From Nitrososphaerota archaeon (GTDB lineage Archaea > Thermoproteota > Nitrososphaeria_A > Caldarchaeales > Calditenuaceae): a stretch of 24,000 bases of DNA. A program made the translations under genes and the position numbers. Positions 16,538 through 22,241 of the stretch are shown here, piece by piece. The stretch spans positions 111,537 through 135,536 of the forward strand of contig JAVQSZ010000005.1 in assembly GCA_033581555.1 (NCBI GenBank). The letters are read 5' to 3'. The notes under the pieces are model-generated. The model was not told where the DNA came from, did no database searches, and worked only from the letters and a program-made list of their open reading frames with translations. The first letter of the stretch is position 1. Each line of letters begins with the position of its first letter.

Positions 16538-18292
16538 ATGGTGTTCGAGACGCCCTTCGGTATAACGATGGTCGGCATCGTGATATTCCTGTTGACGTTC
16601 TTCACGTACAGCAGATGGGTCGACAGGAGGGTCTGGAGCCCCGATCCGAAGAGGCCGACACCGGCGCACATGTACATGGACGGCGTCGAGTTCTTCCCGG
16701 TCTCGAGGTTCGTGCTCTACGGGTTCCAGTGGAACTCCATCGCAGCGTTGGGACCGATCCTCGGACCCGGAATAGCTCTGACCTTCGGGTGGCTGCCCGC
16801 GTTCCTCTGGATCGTATTAGCTGCCCTGCTGATCGGGTGGGTCCAGGACTACAGCTCGATGTTCCTCTCGGTTAGGAAGGAGGGGAGGTCCTTCGGTCCG
16901 ATCGCGTACGAGCTGCTGGGCCCGACGCCTAGGAGGCTGCTGCTCGGGTTCCTGCTCTTTTACTTGCTTTTGATCAACGCGGCGTTCCTCTTCGTCGTGG
17001 CGACCGTCGTGGACGCGTTCGCGGGCGCGTTCTGGTCACTGTTAGTCCTCGTGATAGCCGCGGTCATTACCGGCCACCTTCTCTTCAAGGTGAAGATGCC
17101 CGTGGTGCAGGTCACACTGATCGCGGTCGTGTTGCTCGCGATCGGAGTCGTCATCGGAGCCATCTTCAACTGGCCTCCGCCGGGGACGCTGGGCACAGCT
17201 CCCTACACGCTCTGGTACGTTCCGCTGATCGCGCTCCTGGTGGCCGGCGCGATCCTCCCCATGCCCCGGCTGATCACGCCCATGAACTACATCGCCTACT
17301 ACACGCTCTTCCCGGCGGTCATCATGCTCGCGGTTGGGGCCCTCGCTTCGATCGTGACTGGCGTGAAGGTCAACACCCCAGCGTTCACGTCGTTCTTCGG
17401 TCCTTTCGCGACCGGACCGCTGTGGCCGGCGTTGTTCGTGAGCATAGCTTGCGGCGCCATCTCAGGTTGGCACAGTCTGGTGAGCACCGGCCTGACCAGC
17501 AAGCAGATCGACGTCGAGACTGACGTGAGGCCCGTGGGCGCCGGAGCCATGCTGAGCGAGAACCTCGTGGGTCTAACCTCGCTCGCCGCTTGGATCGTGT
17601 TGCCTGCGGGGACCGCGGTAGCGCCCGCGAACTTCCCGAGGGGCGCAGTGACGCTGACCAGCCCGGTCTTCGGAGGAGCCGCTATGGCGCCTTACCTGGC
17701 GATATTCTTCGCTAGCTACATGGTCGGGATGGCCGTCACGATCCTGACTATCCTCGGGAGGTTCTGGAGGGTGACGATGGCCGAGATCTTCTCGGGGACG
17801 TCGCTCAACTTCCTCGGAAACAAGTACGTCGCGACCGTGCTGGGGTTCGTGCTGCCGGTGGCGTTCGTACTGACCGGTTCGTGGATCAACATCTGGCTAT
17901 ACTTCGGGGGCACCAACCAGCTGCTGGCAGGGTTCGCGCTGCTGATCGTAGGGCTCTACCTGTTCTCCCTCAGGAAGTTCCACTGGTACAGCACCATCCC
18001 GGGCCTCTTCATGATGGTGACGACGCTGGCCGCGATCGCCTGGCAGACCAACGTGTTCGCCACTGCGACCATCAACCCGGTCATCAGGAGGCCCGACGGC
18101 ACCATCGCCCCGTTCTTCCCGCAGCAGGCTCCGCTGCTCAACCTAGGAGGTCCGGGAGCGCTGACGGCGATCAACGCCTTCTCGACCGTGATGGGTATGA
18201 TCATGTTCGTGATCGGGCTGATGATGGCGATCTTCTTCATCAGAGCCTTCCTGAGGTACGCGAGGCAGCCGACTCAGCCCACCGCGACCTAA
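16538..18292 (+). CDS. cstA: Carbon starvation protein A (CstA) family transporter (peptide/pyruvate transporter family)
   Basis: Close motif-level match to E. coli CstA as I remember it: DPKRPTPAHMYMDGVEFFP, LYGFQWNSIAALGPILGP (cf. LFGHHFAAIAGAGPLVGP), GWVQDYSSMFLSVRKEGRSFG (cf. GAVQDFMVLFVSTRRDGRSLG), IACGAISGWHSLVSTGLTSKQ, NQLLAGFALL. ATG 16538 is preferred over the track start 16511 because of the TATA spacing. Confidence 0.9.
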   Translation: MVFETPFGITMVGIVIFLLTFFTYSRWVDRRVWSPDPKRPTPAHMYMDGVEFFPVSRFVLYGFQWNSIAALGPILGPGIALTFGWLPAFLWIVLAALLIGWVQDYSSMFLSVRKEGRSFGPIAYELLGPTPRRLLLGFLLFYLLLINAAFLFVVATVVDAFAGAFWSLLVLVIAAVITGHLLFKVKMPVVQVTLIAVVLLAIGVVIGAIFNWPPPGTLGTAPYTLWYVPLIALLVAGAILPMPRLITPMNYIAYYTLFPAVIMLAVGALASIVTGVKVNTPAFTSFFGPFATGPLWPALFVSIACGAISGWHSLVSTGLTSKQIDVETDVRPVGAGAMLSENLVGLTSLAAWIVLPAGTAVAPANFPRGAVTLTSPVFGGAAMAPYLAIFFASYMVGMAVTILTILGRFWRVTMAEIFSGTSLNFLGNKYVATVLGFVLPVAFVLTGSWINIWLYFGGTNQLLAGFALLIVGLYLFSLRKFHWYSTIPGLFMMVTTLAAIAWQTNVFATATINPVIRRPDGTIAPFFPQQAPLLNLGGPGALTAINAFSTVMGMIMFVIGLMMAIFFIRAFLRYARQPTQPTAT

Positions 18293-18308: not shown

Positions 18309-18318
18309 TTTTTTAAAT
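18309..18318 (+). promoter_or_regulatory. Strong TATA box (TTTTTTAAAT) for the small-ORF/ArsA-like unit; its T6 run could also terminate cstA transcripts
   Basis: This is the only long A/T run in the 50-bp cstA to small-ORF gap, 24-33 nt upstream of ATG 18342. Confidence 0.45.
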
Positions 18319-18341: not shown

Positions 18342-18614
18342 ATGGGTAAGGGCGGTTTTCTTTCGTCGATGAAGAAGGCGCTGTCTGAGGTCACATACGG
18401 AGCCGCGCTGCACGGTCAGGTCTCCGCGGTCCTCAAGACGAGGATGTACATCGAGCACATGTTCATACTGATGATACTGGGCGACATGCTAGGGTTCCCG
18501 ATACTCCCGCCCTACTACTCGCTGAGGCTGCTGCCGTACGCAGTCCCCAACGTCAAGGCTTGGAAGCACAGGTTCTACAGGGAGAGGGACTTCACCGACG
18601 TGATCTACGGGTGA
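18342..18614 (+). CDS. Small (90 aa) hydrophobic protein; possible divergent YbdD/YjiX (DUF466)-like CstA partner with an inserted hydrophobic segment
   Basis: Coding-type codon bias. Motifs YIEHM and FYRERDFTDVIYG(stop) parallel YVEHM and FFRERQDARYGG of E. coli YbdD/YjiX (recalled from memory), in the same order. The gene lies directly downstream of cstA, as ybdD does. The central segment MFILMILGDMLGFPILPPYYSLRLLPYAV is hydrophobic. Its stop TGA 18612-18614 overlaps GTG 18611. Confidence 0.6.
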   Translation: MGKGGFLSSMKKALSEVTYGAALHGQVSAVLKTRMYIEHMFILMILGDMLGFPILPPYYSLRLLPYAVPNVKAWKHRFYRERDFTDVIYG

Positions 18615-19612
18615 TTCGGGTGGCCTGGGGCTTAAGGGACGTAGTCCTGAGGGACGGAGGCCCCCGGATGGTCATCTTCGCGGGAAAGGGAGGCCTCGGG
18701 AAGACGACGAGCAGCGCAGCCCTTGCGTACGCCGCGGCCCTCTCCGGCAAGAGGGTGCTCTGCTTCAGTACCGACCCGCAGGCCAGCCTCAGCGACATCT
18801 TCGAGCGGGACATCTTCGGGAAGGGCGAGGTCGAGGTGGCCAGGAACCTCTACGTCGTCGAGATAGACGCAGACGCGAAGATCAGCGCCTACATAGCAGA
18901 GGTGAAGCAGAGGATCAGGGACATGTACAAACTCGAGGAGATCCCGGCCGAGATCGAGGCCTACATCGACAGCTCGGTCGCGGAGCCCGCGATGTACGAG
19001 TCAGCGACTTACGACGCGATGGCCGACTACCTCGCGAGGGGCGACTACGACCTGTACGTCTTCGACATGCCGCCCTTCGGTCACGGGATCAGGATGCTCA
19101 CGATGGCCGACGTCCTGACCAGCTGGGTCGAGAAGCTCACGGAGGTCCGTGAGAAGGCCAGGGAGTACGACGAGATCGCGAGCAGGCTGAAGGGCGAGAG
19201 GCTGATCAAGGAGGACGAGATCCTGAACGAGCTGAAGGCCATCAAGGACAAGCTGACGACCTTCACCGACTTCATGAGGGACAAGACAAAGTCAGCCTTC
19301 TTCATGGTCATGACCCCCGAGATGATGTCCGTCCACGACACCGAGAGGGCCCTTCAGGCCTTCAGGTCGATCGGCCTCACCCTCTCCGGGATAGTCCTGA
19401 ACAAGGTCCTCCCGAAGGAGCTCGGGTCGAACCCGTCGCCGTACATCTCCTACAGGTACAAGCAGCAGGAGGCGGTCCTGAAGGTGATAGAGGAGAAGTT
19501 CGGGGACCTCGTCGTCGCCGCGATCCCGATGTTCCCGAGGGAGCCGAAGGGCCTCGAGGGGCTGAAGGAGGTCGCCAAGCACCTCGTCGACGGGGTGACG
19601 AGGGTGTGGTGA
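18611..19612 (+). CDS. ArsA/Get3-family P-loop ATPase, subunit 1 (catalytic motifs mostly intact)
   Basis: Deviant Walker A AGKGGLGKTT. The ArsA/Get3 switch I region reads FSTDPQASLSD (cf. STDPAHSLSD). Switch II reads FDMPPFGHGIRML (cf. DTAPTGHTLRLL). GTG 18611 is chosen because of the GTGA overlap with the small ORF and because the RDGGP segment before the P-loop is shared with subunit 2. ATG 18668, preceded by GGAGG at 18656-18660, is a strong alternative. Confidence 0.85.
   Translation: MIRVAWGLRDVVLRDGGPRMVIFAGKGGLGKTTSSAALAYAAALSGKRVLCFSTDPQASLSDIFERDIFGKGEVEVARNLYVVEIDADAKISAYIAEVKQRIRDMYKLEEIPAEIEAYIDSSVAEPAMYESATYDAMADYLARGDYDLYVFDMPPFGHGIRMLTMADVLTSWVEKLTEVREKAREYDEIASRLKGERLIKEDEILNELKAIKDKLTTFTDFMRDKTKSAFFMVMTPEMMSVHDTERALQAFRSIGLTLSGIVLNKVLPKELGSNPSPYISYRYKQQEAVLKVIEEKFGDLVVAAIPMFPREPKGLEGLKEVAKHLVDGVTRVW
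18648..18664 (+). repeat. 17-mer TGAGGGACGGAGGCCCC, copy 1 (16/17 identical to 19610-19626)
   Basis: Direct comparison of the two regions preceding the P-loops of the tandem ATPase genes. Confidence 0.8.
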
Positions 19613-20607
19613 GGGACGGCGGCCCCATAACCGGGGAGCACAGGTTCGTCTTCGTCGGAGGAAAGGGGGGCGTCGGGAAGACGGTACTCGCGGCCGCGTT
19701 GGCCTACGACGCGACGCTCCACGGCAAGAGGGTGCTACTGGCGAGCCTCAACCCAGTCCACTCACTCACGAGCCTCTTCGGTCAGGACCTAGCGGGCGGG
19801 AAGCTCACGAGGATCGAGGGCGCTGAAGGCCTTGACGCGATCGAGGTCGAGATAGATGACCTAGTCCGGGACTATAAGGCCAAGATGACCGGGAGGCTGA
19901 GGGAGTTCTTCAGGTGGGCGGAGGTCCCCATCAACCCCGATCCTTTCATAGAGGTCGCGACGACGAACCCAGCCTTCCACGAGTCCGCGATGTTCGACCG
20001 CGTGATGGACCTCATCCTCGAGGCGGGAGGGAAGTACGACCTGGTGGTCTTCGACACTGCTGCGGTCGCTAACGCGGTGAGGTTGATCGGGCTCAGTAAG
20101 CTCTACGGCCTCTGGCTCGCGAGGATGATCCAGTCGAGGAGGGAGGCGCAGCAGTTCAGGCTCAGCCTCTCCTTCAGGAAGGAGAAGGTGATGGAGGAGA
20201 TCAAGAGGGACCCGGTGATCGCGGACCTCATCGCCCTCCACGAGAAGTTCACGAAGACCAGGGAGGTGATAACTGACCCGAAGCTCACGGGCTTCTACTT
20301 CGTAACGACTCCTGAAAGTCTGCCGATCTCCGTCGTGGTGAGGTTCATCAAGATGGTTGAGGCCTTCAACATCCCGGTAGGCGGTGTCTTCGTGAACAAC
20401 GTGATCGACGCCTCCGAGGCGTCCTCCGACCCCTCCGGGTACCTGTCAGCTAAAGTGGAGGAGCAGCGCAGGTACCTGAAGATGATCGCGGAGCAGATGG
20501 GCGACAAGGTGAAGGGCTACGTGAGGTCGTTCCCGAGCGAGGTGAGGGGCATCGAGGCCTTGAGGGCTGTCGTCGAGGACCTGAGGGGCTACAGGCCGAG
20601 CTTCTGA
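19606..20607 (+). CDS. ArsA/Get3-family P-loop ATPase, subunit 2 (degenerate switch I/II, probably non-hydrolytic)
   Basis: Walker A is intact (GGKGGVGKT). Switch I reads ASLNPVHSL, with Asn in place of the catalytic Asp of TDPAH. Switch II reads FDTAAVANAVRL, so the P-T-G-H of DTAPTGHT is lost. GTG 19606 overlaps the subunit-1 stop (19610-19612) by 7 nt. No other canonical start exists before the P-loop. Confidence 0.85.
   Translation: MVRDGGPITGEHRFVFVGGKGGVGKTVLAAALAYDATLHGKRVLLASLNPVHSLTSLFGQDLAGGKLTRIEGAEGLDAIEVEIDDLVRDYKAKMTGRLREFFRWAEVPINPDPFIEVATTNPAFHESAMFDRVMDLILEAGGKYDLVVFDTAAVANAVRLIGLSKLYGLWLARMIQSRREAQQFRLSLSFRKEKVMEEIKRDPVIADLIALHEKFTKTREVITDPKLTGFYFVTTPESLPISVVVRFIKMVEAFNIPVGGVFVNNVIDASEASSDPSGYLSAKVEEQRRYLKMIAEQMGDKVKGYVRSFPSEVRGIEALRAVVEDLRGYRPSF
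19610..19626 (+). repeat. 17-mer TGAGGGACGGCGGCCCC, copy 2
   Basis: See 18648-18664. Here the TGA is the stop codon of subunit 1. Confidence 0.8.
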
Positions 20608-20623: not shown

Positions 20624-21094
20624 TTGAGGAGGAACAGGTTCGACCTCTTCACCGGCAACATCGTCATCGGGACTTACAGGTTCCTCACGCTGGTCCTGCC
20701 GGAGGGCTGGGCGGTCCAGAGGAGCAGGGCGCCCTCGGACATCTACTACACCGGCGTCGTGCAGGGGAAGGGCTGGGTGACGGAGGGCTACGCGCACTAC
20801 TACCTCACGAACCTCGTGACCGGCGAGCGGTACGACCTCCTCATCGAGGTCAAGAAGGGCGCGAAGGGCGTGGACCTGACCGAGCAGTCGGAGCTCACGA
20901 CGTTCTCCGGCCACTCCGCCTCCGTCAGCAAGAGGGTCTACTCCGTCGGCCTCTTCAGGAAGAGGGAGGTCAGGGAGGTTACCATCAAAACCGCCTGCCA
21001 GCTGACCTCGAGGACGATCGCGATCCAGATCAGCTCCCAGGAGGACCTGCCAAGTGAGGTCCTGGAGGCCCTCTCGGAGTCGGAGTGCCACTAG
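20624..21094 (+). CDS. Hypothetical protein (156 aa, predicted mostly beta, C-terminal SESECH)
   Basis: Strong G/C third-position bias in this frame. TTG 20624 is preceded by GAGGGG (20616-20621), 17 nt after the ArsA-like subunit 2 stop. I recognise no motif. Confidence 0.6.
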   Translation: MRRNRFDLFTGNIVIGTYRFLTLVLPEGWAVQRSRAPSDIYYTGVVQGKGWVTEGYAHYYLTNLVTGERYDLLIEVKKGAKGVDLTEQSELTTFSGHSASVSKRVYSVGLFRKREVREVTIKTACQLTSRTIAIQISSQEDLPSEVLEALSESECH

Positions 21095-21794: not shown

Positions 21795-21818
21795 CCGATC
21801 CGGTGCGTGAGACGGCAG

Positions 21819-22241
21819 ATGGCAGGCTCGATCCAGCTGAGGGTCGTCTTGCTCGACGTCTACCCGACGCAGCTGGGCCACTGCCCGCACTACAATCTGG
21901 TCTCGTCGCAGATGATGGCGGCGGGCTCCGAGTTCTGCGAGCTCTCCTCCCAGGCCCTCGAGTACCCGCAAGAGGTCATCGAGAGTCACAGGAGGGCACT
22001 CGCGGTCTTGAACGTCCTGAGGAGGGCCCTGGACGGAAAGGAGGTCAACGTCGAGGTCGAGATGGTCGACGCGCTCTCCCCCAAGGGCTTCCTGCTCTCC
22101 CTCAGGTACGGCGTGAGGGGGAATTTCGCGGTCGTCGTCAACGGGAAGAAGGTCTACGACGGCGAACCCAGCGTGGAGGCCGTCGAGCGTGCGCTTGAGG
22201 ACTACGTCTCGGAAGCGTTGAACCTCAGGCGTGTGAGTTGA
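21819..22241 (+). CDS. Hypothetical protein with thioredoxin-fold-like pattern (Thioredoxin_3/ArsD-like) lacking a CxxC pair
   Basis: An N-terminal beta strand is followed by a lone Cys (LRVVLLDVYPTQLGHCPHY). The C-terminal GNFAVVVNGKKVYDGEPSVEAVERALEDY resembles the xPALVINGKVVxxGxxPSxEEI end of small thioredoxin-like proteins and the LPLLLLDGETVMAGRYPKRAEL end of ArsD. This is pattern recognition only. ATG 21819 is preferred over GTG 21807. Confidence 0.55.
   Translation: MAGSIQLRVVLLDVYPTQLGHCPHYNLVSSQMMAAGSEFCELSSQALEYPQEVIESHRRALAVLNVLRRALDGKEVNVEVEMVDALSPKGFLLSLRYGVRGNFAVVVNGKKVYDGEPSVEAVERALEDYVSEALNLRRVS

Follow-up and report, generated by a model that had tools for sequence, protein, structure and literature searches.

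CstX, a small protein encoded between cstA and a pair of ArsA-type ATPase genes in a Calditenuaceae archaeon, and its possible role as an adaptor

The CstX family and the cstX gene of the window

Enteric bacteria import pyruvate and peptides mainly through permeases of the CstA family. In archaea and bacteria, the gene for a protein of about 90 residues with one hydrophobic segment lies between cstA and homologues of arsA, whose products are single-domain proteins of about 330 residues; this small protein was described as a 'single TMS' (transmembrane segment) protein and named CstX by Castillo and Saier (Int J Microbiol 2010:187373; PMC2963123), who reported its co-evolution with both CstA and ArsA and proposed it as the link between them. 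In E. coli, the small protein YbdD (YbdD/YjiX family, DUF466) is required for CstA-dependent pyruvate uptake (PMC5847655). Here, the cstX gene of a Nitrososphaerota archaeon (Calditenuaceae) is compared with these and other described systems. The gene is located in a stretch of 24,000 nucleotides (contig JAVQSZ010000005.1 of assembly GCA_033581555.1, positions 111,537 to 135,536), called 'the window' throughout, in the order cstA - cstX - arsA - arsA, with cstA ending at position 18292 and cstX starting at 18342. The genome to which the window belongs has a size of 1.43 Mb and is 90.6% complete, and the nearest public relative of the window among the matches listed was a Candidatus Caldarchaeales metagenome-assembled genome. 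An earlier note, made from the letters of this DNA without database searches, had suggested that the cstX product may be a membrane-associated YbdD-like adaptor in which two signature motifs are split by a hydrophobic insertion.

The features on which that interpretation was built are all present in the sequence: the 90-codon open reading frame (ORF), the YIEHM and C-terminal motifs of its product, a TATA-like box upstream, and a stop codon overlapping GTG 18611 (coordinates in Table 1). The product reads MGKGG...YIEHM...FYRERDFTDVIYG (full sequence MGKGGFLSSMKKALSEVTYGAALHGQVSAVLKTRMYIEHMFILMILGDMLGFPILPPYYSLRLLPYAVPNVKAWKHRFYRERDFTDVIYG), is free of cysteine and ends in ...DVIYG. No Pfam family was matched at E <= 1 in a copy of Pfam that did not contain the PF25952 model, and the sole NCBIfam match was NF041419, 'cory-CC-star protein' (E 5.4e-7, 29.5 bits, cut-off 80). 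A search of 5.8 billion proteins returned 736 homologues (best E 5.4e-48), every one of them already tagged as PF25952, a family named DUF7990, and an exhaustive HMMER search gave 286 representative clusters at 50% identity, 135 of them at E <= 1e-10. The homologues came from Caldarchaeum, Bathyarchaeia, Thermoplasmata, Anaerolineae, Symbiobacteriaceae, Thermaerobacter and others, and about 60% identity is still retained between archaeal and bacterial members, because of which the possibility of a spurious ORF was ruled out. The conserved core of the family, at residues 39-68, has the form FxLxxxGDxxGxPxLPPYYSLRLLPY, in which G47 and G51 are invariant together with P65, while D48, P53, Y59, L61, R62 and L64 are conserved in at least 90% of the members. 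All invariant or near-invariant columns (G20, G47, D48, G51, P53, Y59, L61, R62, L64, P65, W74 and R80) are held by the window protein, which also agrees with the overall family pattern Y-G...R...E-x-L-F...G-D-x-x-G-x-P-x-L-P-P-Y-Y-S-L-R-L-L-P-Y...W-K-R-R-x-L-R-E-R-D. We regard the protein as almost certainly a member of the CstX/DUF7990 family and part of a conserved cstA cassette. The family, its gene context and the adaptor hypothesis have been in print since 2010; in the literature on DUF7990 and on newer cstA-arsA work nothing was found past that paper, and no later experiments were found.

The hydrophobic stretch, which the earlier note had taken for an insertion, turned out to be the most conserved part of CstX, with all three invariant residues G47, G51 and P65 inside it. 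In an AlphaFold2 (AF2) model computed from the family alignment (predicted local distance difference test, pLDDT, 77.7), helices are predicted at residues 4-50, 57-62, 64-79 and 84-89, with a turn at 51-56, and the break at G51-F-P-I-L-P56 coincides with the invariant Gly/Pro turn. The hydrophobic part is thus modelled as a helix-turn-helix of about 11 + 11 residues that carries the near-invariant D48 and R62, and it is flanked by basic residues on both sides (R34 before, K72-R82 after). Since both flanks are basic, a hairpin with its two ends in the cytoplasm would fit better than a single-pass helix; such a hairpin could reach into the inner leaflet or, alternatively, lie within a protein interface. 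The single classical membrane-spanning helix of the 2010 paper ('1 TMS') we consider unlikely: the Gly/Pro turn is invariant, an Asp and an Arg are conserved, the core is basic on either side, and its hydropathy is borderline. The membrane association put forward in the earlier note is plausible, in a form other than a classical transmembrane helix, given the G-x-P...PP turn, D48, R62 and the hydropathy.

Gene context, the ATPase pair and the adaptor model

CstX relatives were found in at least 580 genomes in a scan of one genome per species, and gene neighbourhoods were analysed by tblastn in the 80 closest loci among the matches listed. At least one ArsA-type gene follows cstX in 67/67 loci, with distances between cstX and the ATPase gene mostly from -3 to about 150 nucleotides (nt), and two such genes lie directly 3' of cstX on the same strand in 65 of the 67 loci with at least 2.3 kb of downstream sequence. 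The cstA gene was found in 43 of the 44 loci for which both flanks were available, and directly upstream of cstX on the same strand in 52/69. In a sample of 251 genomes from the phylum of the window, 39 were CstX-positive and 63 CstA-positive, and all 39 were contained within the 63, a nested pattern that is to be read as a pattern and not as a statistical test, since related genomes are not independent. Homologues occurring independently of cstA, which the earlier note had named as evidence that would count against its reading, were thus not encountered at the genome level (39/39 with CstA), with the qualification that a second, unlinked paralogue exists in the window genome.

The same arrangement extends to more divergent relatives. 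A true cory-CC-star protein is encoded in 24 of 401 sampled Actinomycetota genomes, and in the loci that were read (L102-L121) its gene adjoins arsA in 20/20 cases and has cstA on its other side in 19/20, the contig of the twentieth stopping too early to show cstA. Nine Thermoproteota genomes gave weak CstX matches (E 1e-6 to 1e-9; six are detected by tblastn, and the ORFs were read in all nine), and in 9/9 of these loci (L126-L134) the divergent CstX-like gene has cstA and a single arsA gene as its neighbours, lying either between the two or to one side of them. The proteins of this Thermoproteota subfamily keep the hydrophobic G...G-x-P...LLP core, and an acidic C-terminus (…DDQLGIIGFDIE or …SAMGGEW) replaces the basic WKRR-LRERD helix in these single-ATPase variants.

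These counts bear on the proposal that CstX regulates or stabilises CstA only, as a functional analogue of YbdD, and that its linkage to the ATPase genes reflects co-regulation without contact. The position of cstX directly 3' of cstA in most loci would agree with this, as would the requirement for YbdD in CstA-dependent pyruvate uptake by E. coli, where there is no ArsA partner (PMC5847655). However, an ArsA gene is present in 67/67 of the closest, 20/20 of the actinobacterial and 9/9 of the divergent loci, CstA-positive genomes that are devoid of CstX are common (24 of the 63 in the phylum sample), and some lineages keep cstX by the ATPase genes while cstA is on the opposite strand. We consider a role confined to CstA very improbable.

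A second, divergent CstX paralogue (25-50% identity) is present in 37/80 loci. Two copies are carried by about 29 of the 39 CstX-positive genomes of the phylum sample, often with the ATPase pair between them and a separation of about 2.2 kb. In most other lineages the second copy is part of the cassette and usually lies beyond the ATPase pair. In the window genome it is located on another contig (C10; L002 1276-1725, + strand), beside an adenosylhomocysteinase gene. Just 5' of this orphan copy, at about 1150-1300 of L002, the translation resembles that of a tRNA gene (…GGLEPPTTRYL…).

The two ATPases encoded after cstX are asymmetric. In ATPase 1, switch I is intact (STDPQASLSD), and the Asp before the Pro is found in 71/71 orthologues (S/V-D-P-Q-A-S), while in ATPase 2 this Asp is replaced by Asn (SLNPVHSL), the form N-P-V-H-S being kept in 70/71 orthologues. 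The switch I Asp is catalytic in Get3 and ArsA. With Asn in this position, ATPase 2 is probably the hydrolysis-deficient partner of a heterodimer.

A model in which CstX is the small subunit of a cassette made up of cstA, cstX, arsA1, arsA2 and accessory genes would accommodate these observations. The hydrophobic helix-turn-helix (residues 39-68) would form a hairpin that dips into the cytoplasmic leaflet or packs on CstA, while the long amphipathic helix at the N-terminus and the basic one at the C-terminus (WKRRxLRERD) would remain cytoplasmic. Both cytoplasmic helices would dock the asymmetric heterodimer of a catalytic ATPase 1 and an Asn-bearing ATPase 2, and, in the most economical version, one or two CstX paralogues would in this way tether an ATPase heterodimer with one active site to CstA, whose transport would be made ATP-coupled or ATP-gated, as ArsA does for ArsB. 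An adaptor between CstA and the ATPases, as proposed both in the earlier note and, long before it, by Castillo and Saier (PMC2963123), fits the linkage found here (ArsA 67/67, cstA 43/44). Taken as a whole, cassette identity together with the adaptor model is the explanation that we favour on balance, by a narrow preference; the coupling mechanism itself, for which we infer the contacts, the topology, the substrate and the effect of ATP, we would call evenly poised between right and wrong.

Several observations weigh against this model. The hydropathy of CstX is borderline (maximum over 19 residues on the Kyte-Doolittle scale 1.68; family median 1.61), which makes membrane contact uncertain, and a Foldseek search of the PDB gave no structural analogue of CstX, nor was a solved structure found for CstA, CstX or YbdD. 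The proposed docking surface is not universal, since the acidic tail takes the place of the basic helix in the single-ATPase variants, and the second CstX paralogue of the window genome is unlinked to the cassette. In several Bathyarchaeia, cstA is downstream on the opposite strand while cstX adjoins the ATPase genes; CstX is linked most tightly to the ATPase genes and not to cstA, and it could act for the ATPases in a role that has nothing to do with transport.

The main rival builds on this last point and takes the cassette for a Get3-like chaperone or insertion system instead of a transport energiser. The ATPases would handle hydrophobic helices, CstX would be a client or a Get1/2-like receptor, a protein of 156 residues encoded after the ATPases (O156) would be a holdase, and CstA would be assembled by the system or co-regulated with it. 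Besides the tighter linkage of CstX to the ATPases, this proposal can draw on the matches of both ATPases to TIGR00345 (GET3/ArsA/TRC40) and on the finding that these are the only ArsA-family genes in the window genome, which consequently has no separate Get3 homologue. In Get2, the Get3-binding helix has an RERR motif, and CstX has WKRRxLRER. O156 also weakly resembles the Mog1/PsbP-like fold, which includes SciW, a chaperone solved in complex with a transmembrane domain, but these fold matches are weak (E about 1e-3, TM-score 0.45-0.55). Neither ATPase contains a CXXC zinc motif, and ATPase 2 is devoid of cysteine. Nor is CstX a tail-anchored protein, for which a lone transmembrane helix would be expected no more than about 30 residues from the C-terminus; its hydrophobic stretch is central (39-68 of 90), interrupted by G51-F-P-I-L-P-P57 and followed by a basic tail of 22 residues. 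The cassette nearly always includes cstA, and all 39 CstX-positive genomes of the phylum sample have CstA, which argues against a general insertion machine, for which so close an association with one permease would be surprising. We therefore consider the chaperone or insertion role unlikely, and retain the adaptor model as the preferred explanation.

Expression signals and neighbouring genes

The cstA gene is single-copy and encodes the only CstA in the window genome. Between it and cstX, the TATA-like box precedes the cstX start codon by 24-33 nt, and a T-rich TTTTTTA box is found at an equal distance from the cstX start in the Caldarchaeales relatives (loci L019-L025). The retention of its position while the remaining spacer diverges supports an internal promoter, which suggests a leaderless or near-leaderless cstX-arsA transcript.

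The TGA stop of cstX (18612-18614) overlaps GTG 18611, which is in frame with the first ATPase and which the earlier note had taken as its start. The overlap is present, yet the conserved start of ATPase 1 aligns with GTG 18620, 6 nt past the cstX stop (TTG in one relative), and translation may begin there instead. Translational coupling between cstX and ATPase 1, as claimed in the earlier note, is plausible with either start (overlap or 6-nt gap). In the four closest relatives (L019-L022), purifying selection acts on the N-terminal peptide of ATPase 1, AWGLRDVVLRDG, and the extension has the consensus (V/L)(A/V)WGLR(D/E)(V/I)VL(R/D)(D/E)G; the differences between these loci are third-position changes and an in-frame indel of 3 nt, which shows that the extension is translated. 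In Caldarchaeum, the ATPase-1 gene starts at an ATG just 5' of the P-loop, 36 nt past the cstX stop, and the exact overlap of stop and start is lineage-specific.

Table 1. Features of the cstA-cstX-arsA region in the window.
Feature	Position	Strand	Remarks
cstA, CstA-family permease, short form of 593 residues	16511..18292	+	PF02554, E 3.9e-103
TATA-like box TTTTTTAAAT	18309..18318	+	24-33 nt before the cstX ATG
cstX, 90-residue small protein	18342..18614	+	CstX / DUF7990 (PF25952) family
ArsA/Get3-type ATPase 1	18611..19612	+	PF02374, E 2.2e-71; TIGR00345, E 1.4e-68; alternative starts GTG 18620 and ATG 18668
ArsA/Get3-type ATPase 2	19606..20607	+	PF02374, E 2e-51; TIGR00345, E 1.7e-52
156-residue accessory protein (O156), all-beta	20624..21094	+	conserved Cys-His C-terminus
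Membrane protein, one hydrophobic segment	21054..21770	+	ORF; start uncertain (GTG 21147 of the earlier note gives 207 residues)
144-residue thioredoxin-like protein	21807..22241	+	homologous to the N-terminal domain of natural CstX fusions

Downstream of the ATPase genes, three further genes on the same strand (Table 1) recur in part of the 80 loci. O156 is encoded after ATPase 2 in 23/80 loci from both archaea and bacteria, and so ranks in both domains as a fifth conserved member of the cassette. It had no Pfam or NCBIfam match, and its AF2 model (pLDDT 94.1) gave weak PsbP/Mog1/Tsi3/SciW-like fold matches, with E 1.6e-3. The Cys-His end was present in all 21 extracted homologues, two of which carry 1-3 extra residues, and H97, C125 and C155 were invariant, which suggests a metal or thiol site. 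Homologues of the membrane protein were found in 12/80 loci, in several of them (L029, L030, L037 and L049) directly beside the second CstX paralogue, and this protein may be a candidate for the 'CstY' of Castillo and Saier.

Homologues of the 144-residue thioredoxin-like protein were present in 17/80 loci (tblastn). By BLASTP, it matched the N-terminal domain of natural fusions that end in a CstX domain (P0155, E 6e-8; P0135, E 3e-5; P0161, E 1.5e-4), a set to which L123 6001-6675 also belongs. P0155 is encoded in a locus of the order CstA - [thioredoxin-like + DUF7990] - DUF7990 - ArsA - ArsA. In the Caldarchaeum loci, the thioredoxin-like gene is directly upstream of the second CstX paralogue. 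Read in the Rosetta-stone manner, the fusions hint that the thioredoxin-like protein binds a CstX paralogue.

Comparison with YbdD/YjiX and other known systems

Like cstX, the genes of YbdD/YjiX proteins are small and located immediately 3' of cstA or btsT, in E. coli and in 6 of the 12 plasmid records read, those in which cstA is annotated. For the comparison, E. coli YbdD was taken from NC_000913, DUF466 proteins were aligned in a narrow set of close homologues (A2) and a diverse set (A3, with 12 sequences from plasmid or chromid records), and the CstX profile consisted of 65 diverse relatives. The two collinear motifs shared by window CstX and E. coli YbdD reached a BLOSUM62 score of 52, compared with 32.3 +/- 3.6 for shuffled versions of the 90-residue protein, and since none of 3000 shuffles reached 52, the coincidence noticed in the earlier note is real for this single pair of proteins. 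The motifs are, however, not signatures of the CstX family: among the 65 relatives, Y36 was found in 14%, H39 in 34%, M40 in 11%, F78 in 6%, Y79 in 5% and the terminal YG in about 10%, and only E38 and R80-E81-R/K82 were conserved. The invariant pattern of DUF466, G-x-P-(D)-Y-x-x-Y...H...P...F followed by a C-terminal Cys-Cys (or Cys-Sec, with selenocysteine), with Y28, H31 and F47 among its invariant residues, is not found in window CstX, in which only G-x-P...Y can be matched, in another register than that of YIEHM. In the register of the earlier note, Y28 and H31 of DUF466, both invariant, come to lie opposite CstX columns that vary, and the summed profile score of 12.6 is ordinary, being reached by 95% of column-permuted controls.

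Database and profile searches gave the same picture. The DUF466 model PF04328 ('Sel_put') had no match to the 90-residue protein at E <= 1 (gathering score 25 bits) and none in the whole window genome at E <= 10, with E. coli controls at 94-104 bits, and BLASTP of window CstX against YbdD produced no alignment. The two families are separated by NCBIfam, in which DUF466 proteins match only KCU-star and CstX proteins only cory-CC-star. With hhalign, the probability for CstX against DUF466 was 2% (A2) and 0.5% (A3, E 0.11), and that for cory-CC-star against DUF466 was 0.2%, the E values of these comparisons spanning 0.024-0.26, while the positive control of CstX against cory-CC-star gave 94.7% (E 6e-8). 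The cory-CC-star family had been considered as a bridge between CstX and DUF466, being homologous to CstX and having a Cys-Cys end, but was rejected on account of that 0.2%. Homology to DUF466 in the register of the earlier note was rejected on the results of Pfam, BLASTP, hhalign, per-column conservation and the profile-window test.

A different register brings out a weak resemblance. In each of the three hhalign runs the alignment settled on MLGFPILPPY opposite MIGMPDYDNY, a short stretch holding the G-x-P...Y that is invariant in both families, here part of a turn of the form h-h-G-h-P...Y (h, hydrophobic). Extended, this register also pairs xLRER with FFRER, and the Gly and the R-E-R tripeptide are spaced 29 residues apart in CstX, against 28 in DUF466. 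The best 5-column window scored 18.7, and 26.0 when paired with the RER window, which was above 99.8-99.9% of the column-permuted controls and above all 26 decoy segments from real CstA, ATPase and O156 profiles (maxima 17.3 and 25.1); the margin over these real-family decoys was small, corresponding to roughly P 0.01-0.03. With hhalign, this register has E 0.02-0.1; of the column-shuffled profiles, 7.5% attained its extended score of 13.2, and the reversed profile came close (12.9). The RER helix is missing in divergent CstX relatives. The resemblance in this register, at roughly P 0.01-0.1, is weakly suggestive at best.

Could CstX nevertheless share a very distant ancestor with YbdD/YjiX? 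Small size and a gene position beside cstA are common to both, the two-motif pairwise score and the recurrent G-x-P match would point in this direction, and the actinobacterial CstX subfamily ends in Cys-Cys like DUF466; against this stand the negative PF04328, NCBIfam and hhalign results and the shuffled and reversed profiles. A kinship of this kind is improbable in our judgement. In the form proposed by the earlier note, with the YVEHM and FFRER motifs split by a hydrophobic insertion of 35 residues, it is a good deal less probable again; in the other form, the invariant G-x-P...Y turn and the R-E-R helix would align at near-equal spacing, and CstX would have about 30 extra N-terminal residues. 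The Cys-Cys ends of actinobacterial CstX and of DUF466 could be either a convergence on a shared function beside CstA or a trace of common ancestry. Thiol motifs or related features recur around CstA: Cys-Cys in DUF466 and actinobacterial CstX, Cys-Sec in Campylobacter, Cys-His in O156, and the thioredoxin-like protein that is fused to CstX in some bacteria. A far-reaching conjecture, to which we give even less credence than to the kinship as such, would make CstX/DUF7990 and YbdD/DUF466 two diverged branches of an ancient CstA-accessory family with a G-x-P hairpin; the thiol motifs at the C-termini would then be signs that what CstA systems transport or sense involves a step dependent on thiols, selenium or metal, as opposed to plain pyruvate or peptide uptake, and the ArsA-type pair would act as in ArsD-ArsA-ArsB. 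In their general properties the two families differ, as DUF466 proteins have 57-82 residues, always end in Cys-Cys (or Cys-Sec) and are devoid of a hydrophobic core and an ArsA partner, whereas CstX proteins have 85-125 residues, are hydrophobic, Cys-free in this lineage, and always accompanied by ArsA genes.

As a discovery the locus is ordinary, because the family, the context and the adaptor idea were already published and the claim of a split YbdD signature fails. Window cstX adds no new kind of element, and the survey removes an unsupported link to YbdD. It also delineates a large branch of CstA systems (at least 580 species, from archaea and many bacterial phyla) that carries CstX together with an asymmetric Get3/ArsA-type pair, and sharpens the questions to be asked of two CstX paralogues and two ATPase subunits, one of them degenerate, of the thioredoxin-like fusion, and of two accessory proteins with cysteine-motif ends.

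Among the other known systems, the Get3-Get1/Get2 system is similar in its Get3/ArsA-fold ATPases and in having a small, membrane-proximal helical partner with a basic helix, but between CstX and Get1 or Get2 no similarity was detected, a tail-anchored client is not known, and the cassette tracks one permease gene. The mycobacterial BagA/BagB proteins likewise form a heteromeric ATPase pair, with weak NCBIfam matches (E 1e-8 to 2e-13). With the ArsA-ArsB(-ArsD) pump, the cassette shares an ArsA-family ATPase combined with a permease of the secondary-carrier type, and the window cluster includes a thioredoxin-fold gene. The permease is CstA in place of ArsB or Acr3, however, the ATPases are two separate half-size proteins, one of them degenerate, metalloid-binding cysteines and arsR are lacking, and ArsAB has no small subunit like CstX. 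Should the adaptor model hold, the cassette would follow ArsAB as a second example of an ArsA-fold ATPase put to work on a secondary carrier.

The closest described relatives are cory-CC-star and the CstX of 2010. The cory-CC-star proteins of Actinomycetota (NF041419) are homologous to CstX in the core and occupy the same slot between cstA and arsA, but the WKRR-LRERD helix of window CstX is missing from them, and window CstX, which scores far below the cut-off of the model and has no Cys, is a homologue outside the equivalog. All 19 of the actinobacterial sequences read end in Cys-Cys (G-[FVM]-C-C, once A-C-C), and TGA is the next codon in 18 of the 19. From the CstX of Castillo and Saier, window CstX differs in nothing essential; what is added to their account is the appearance of a proline-broken hairpin as opposed to a single transmembrane span, the common occurrence of two paralogues, and the asymmetry of the ATPase pair.

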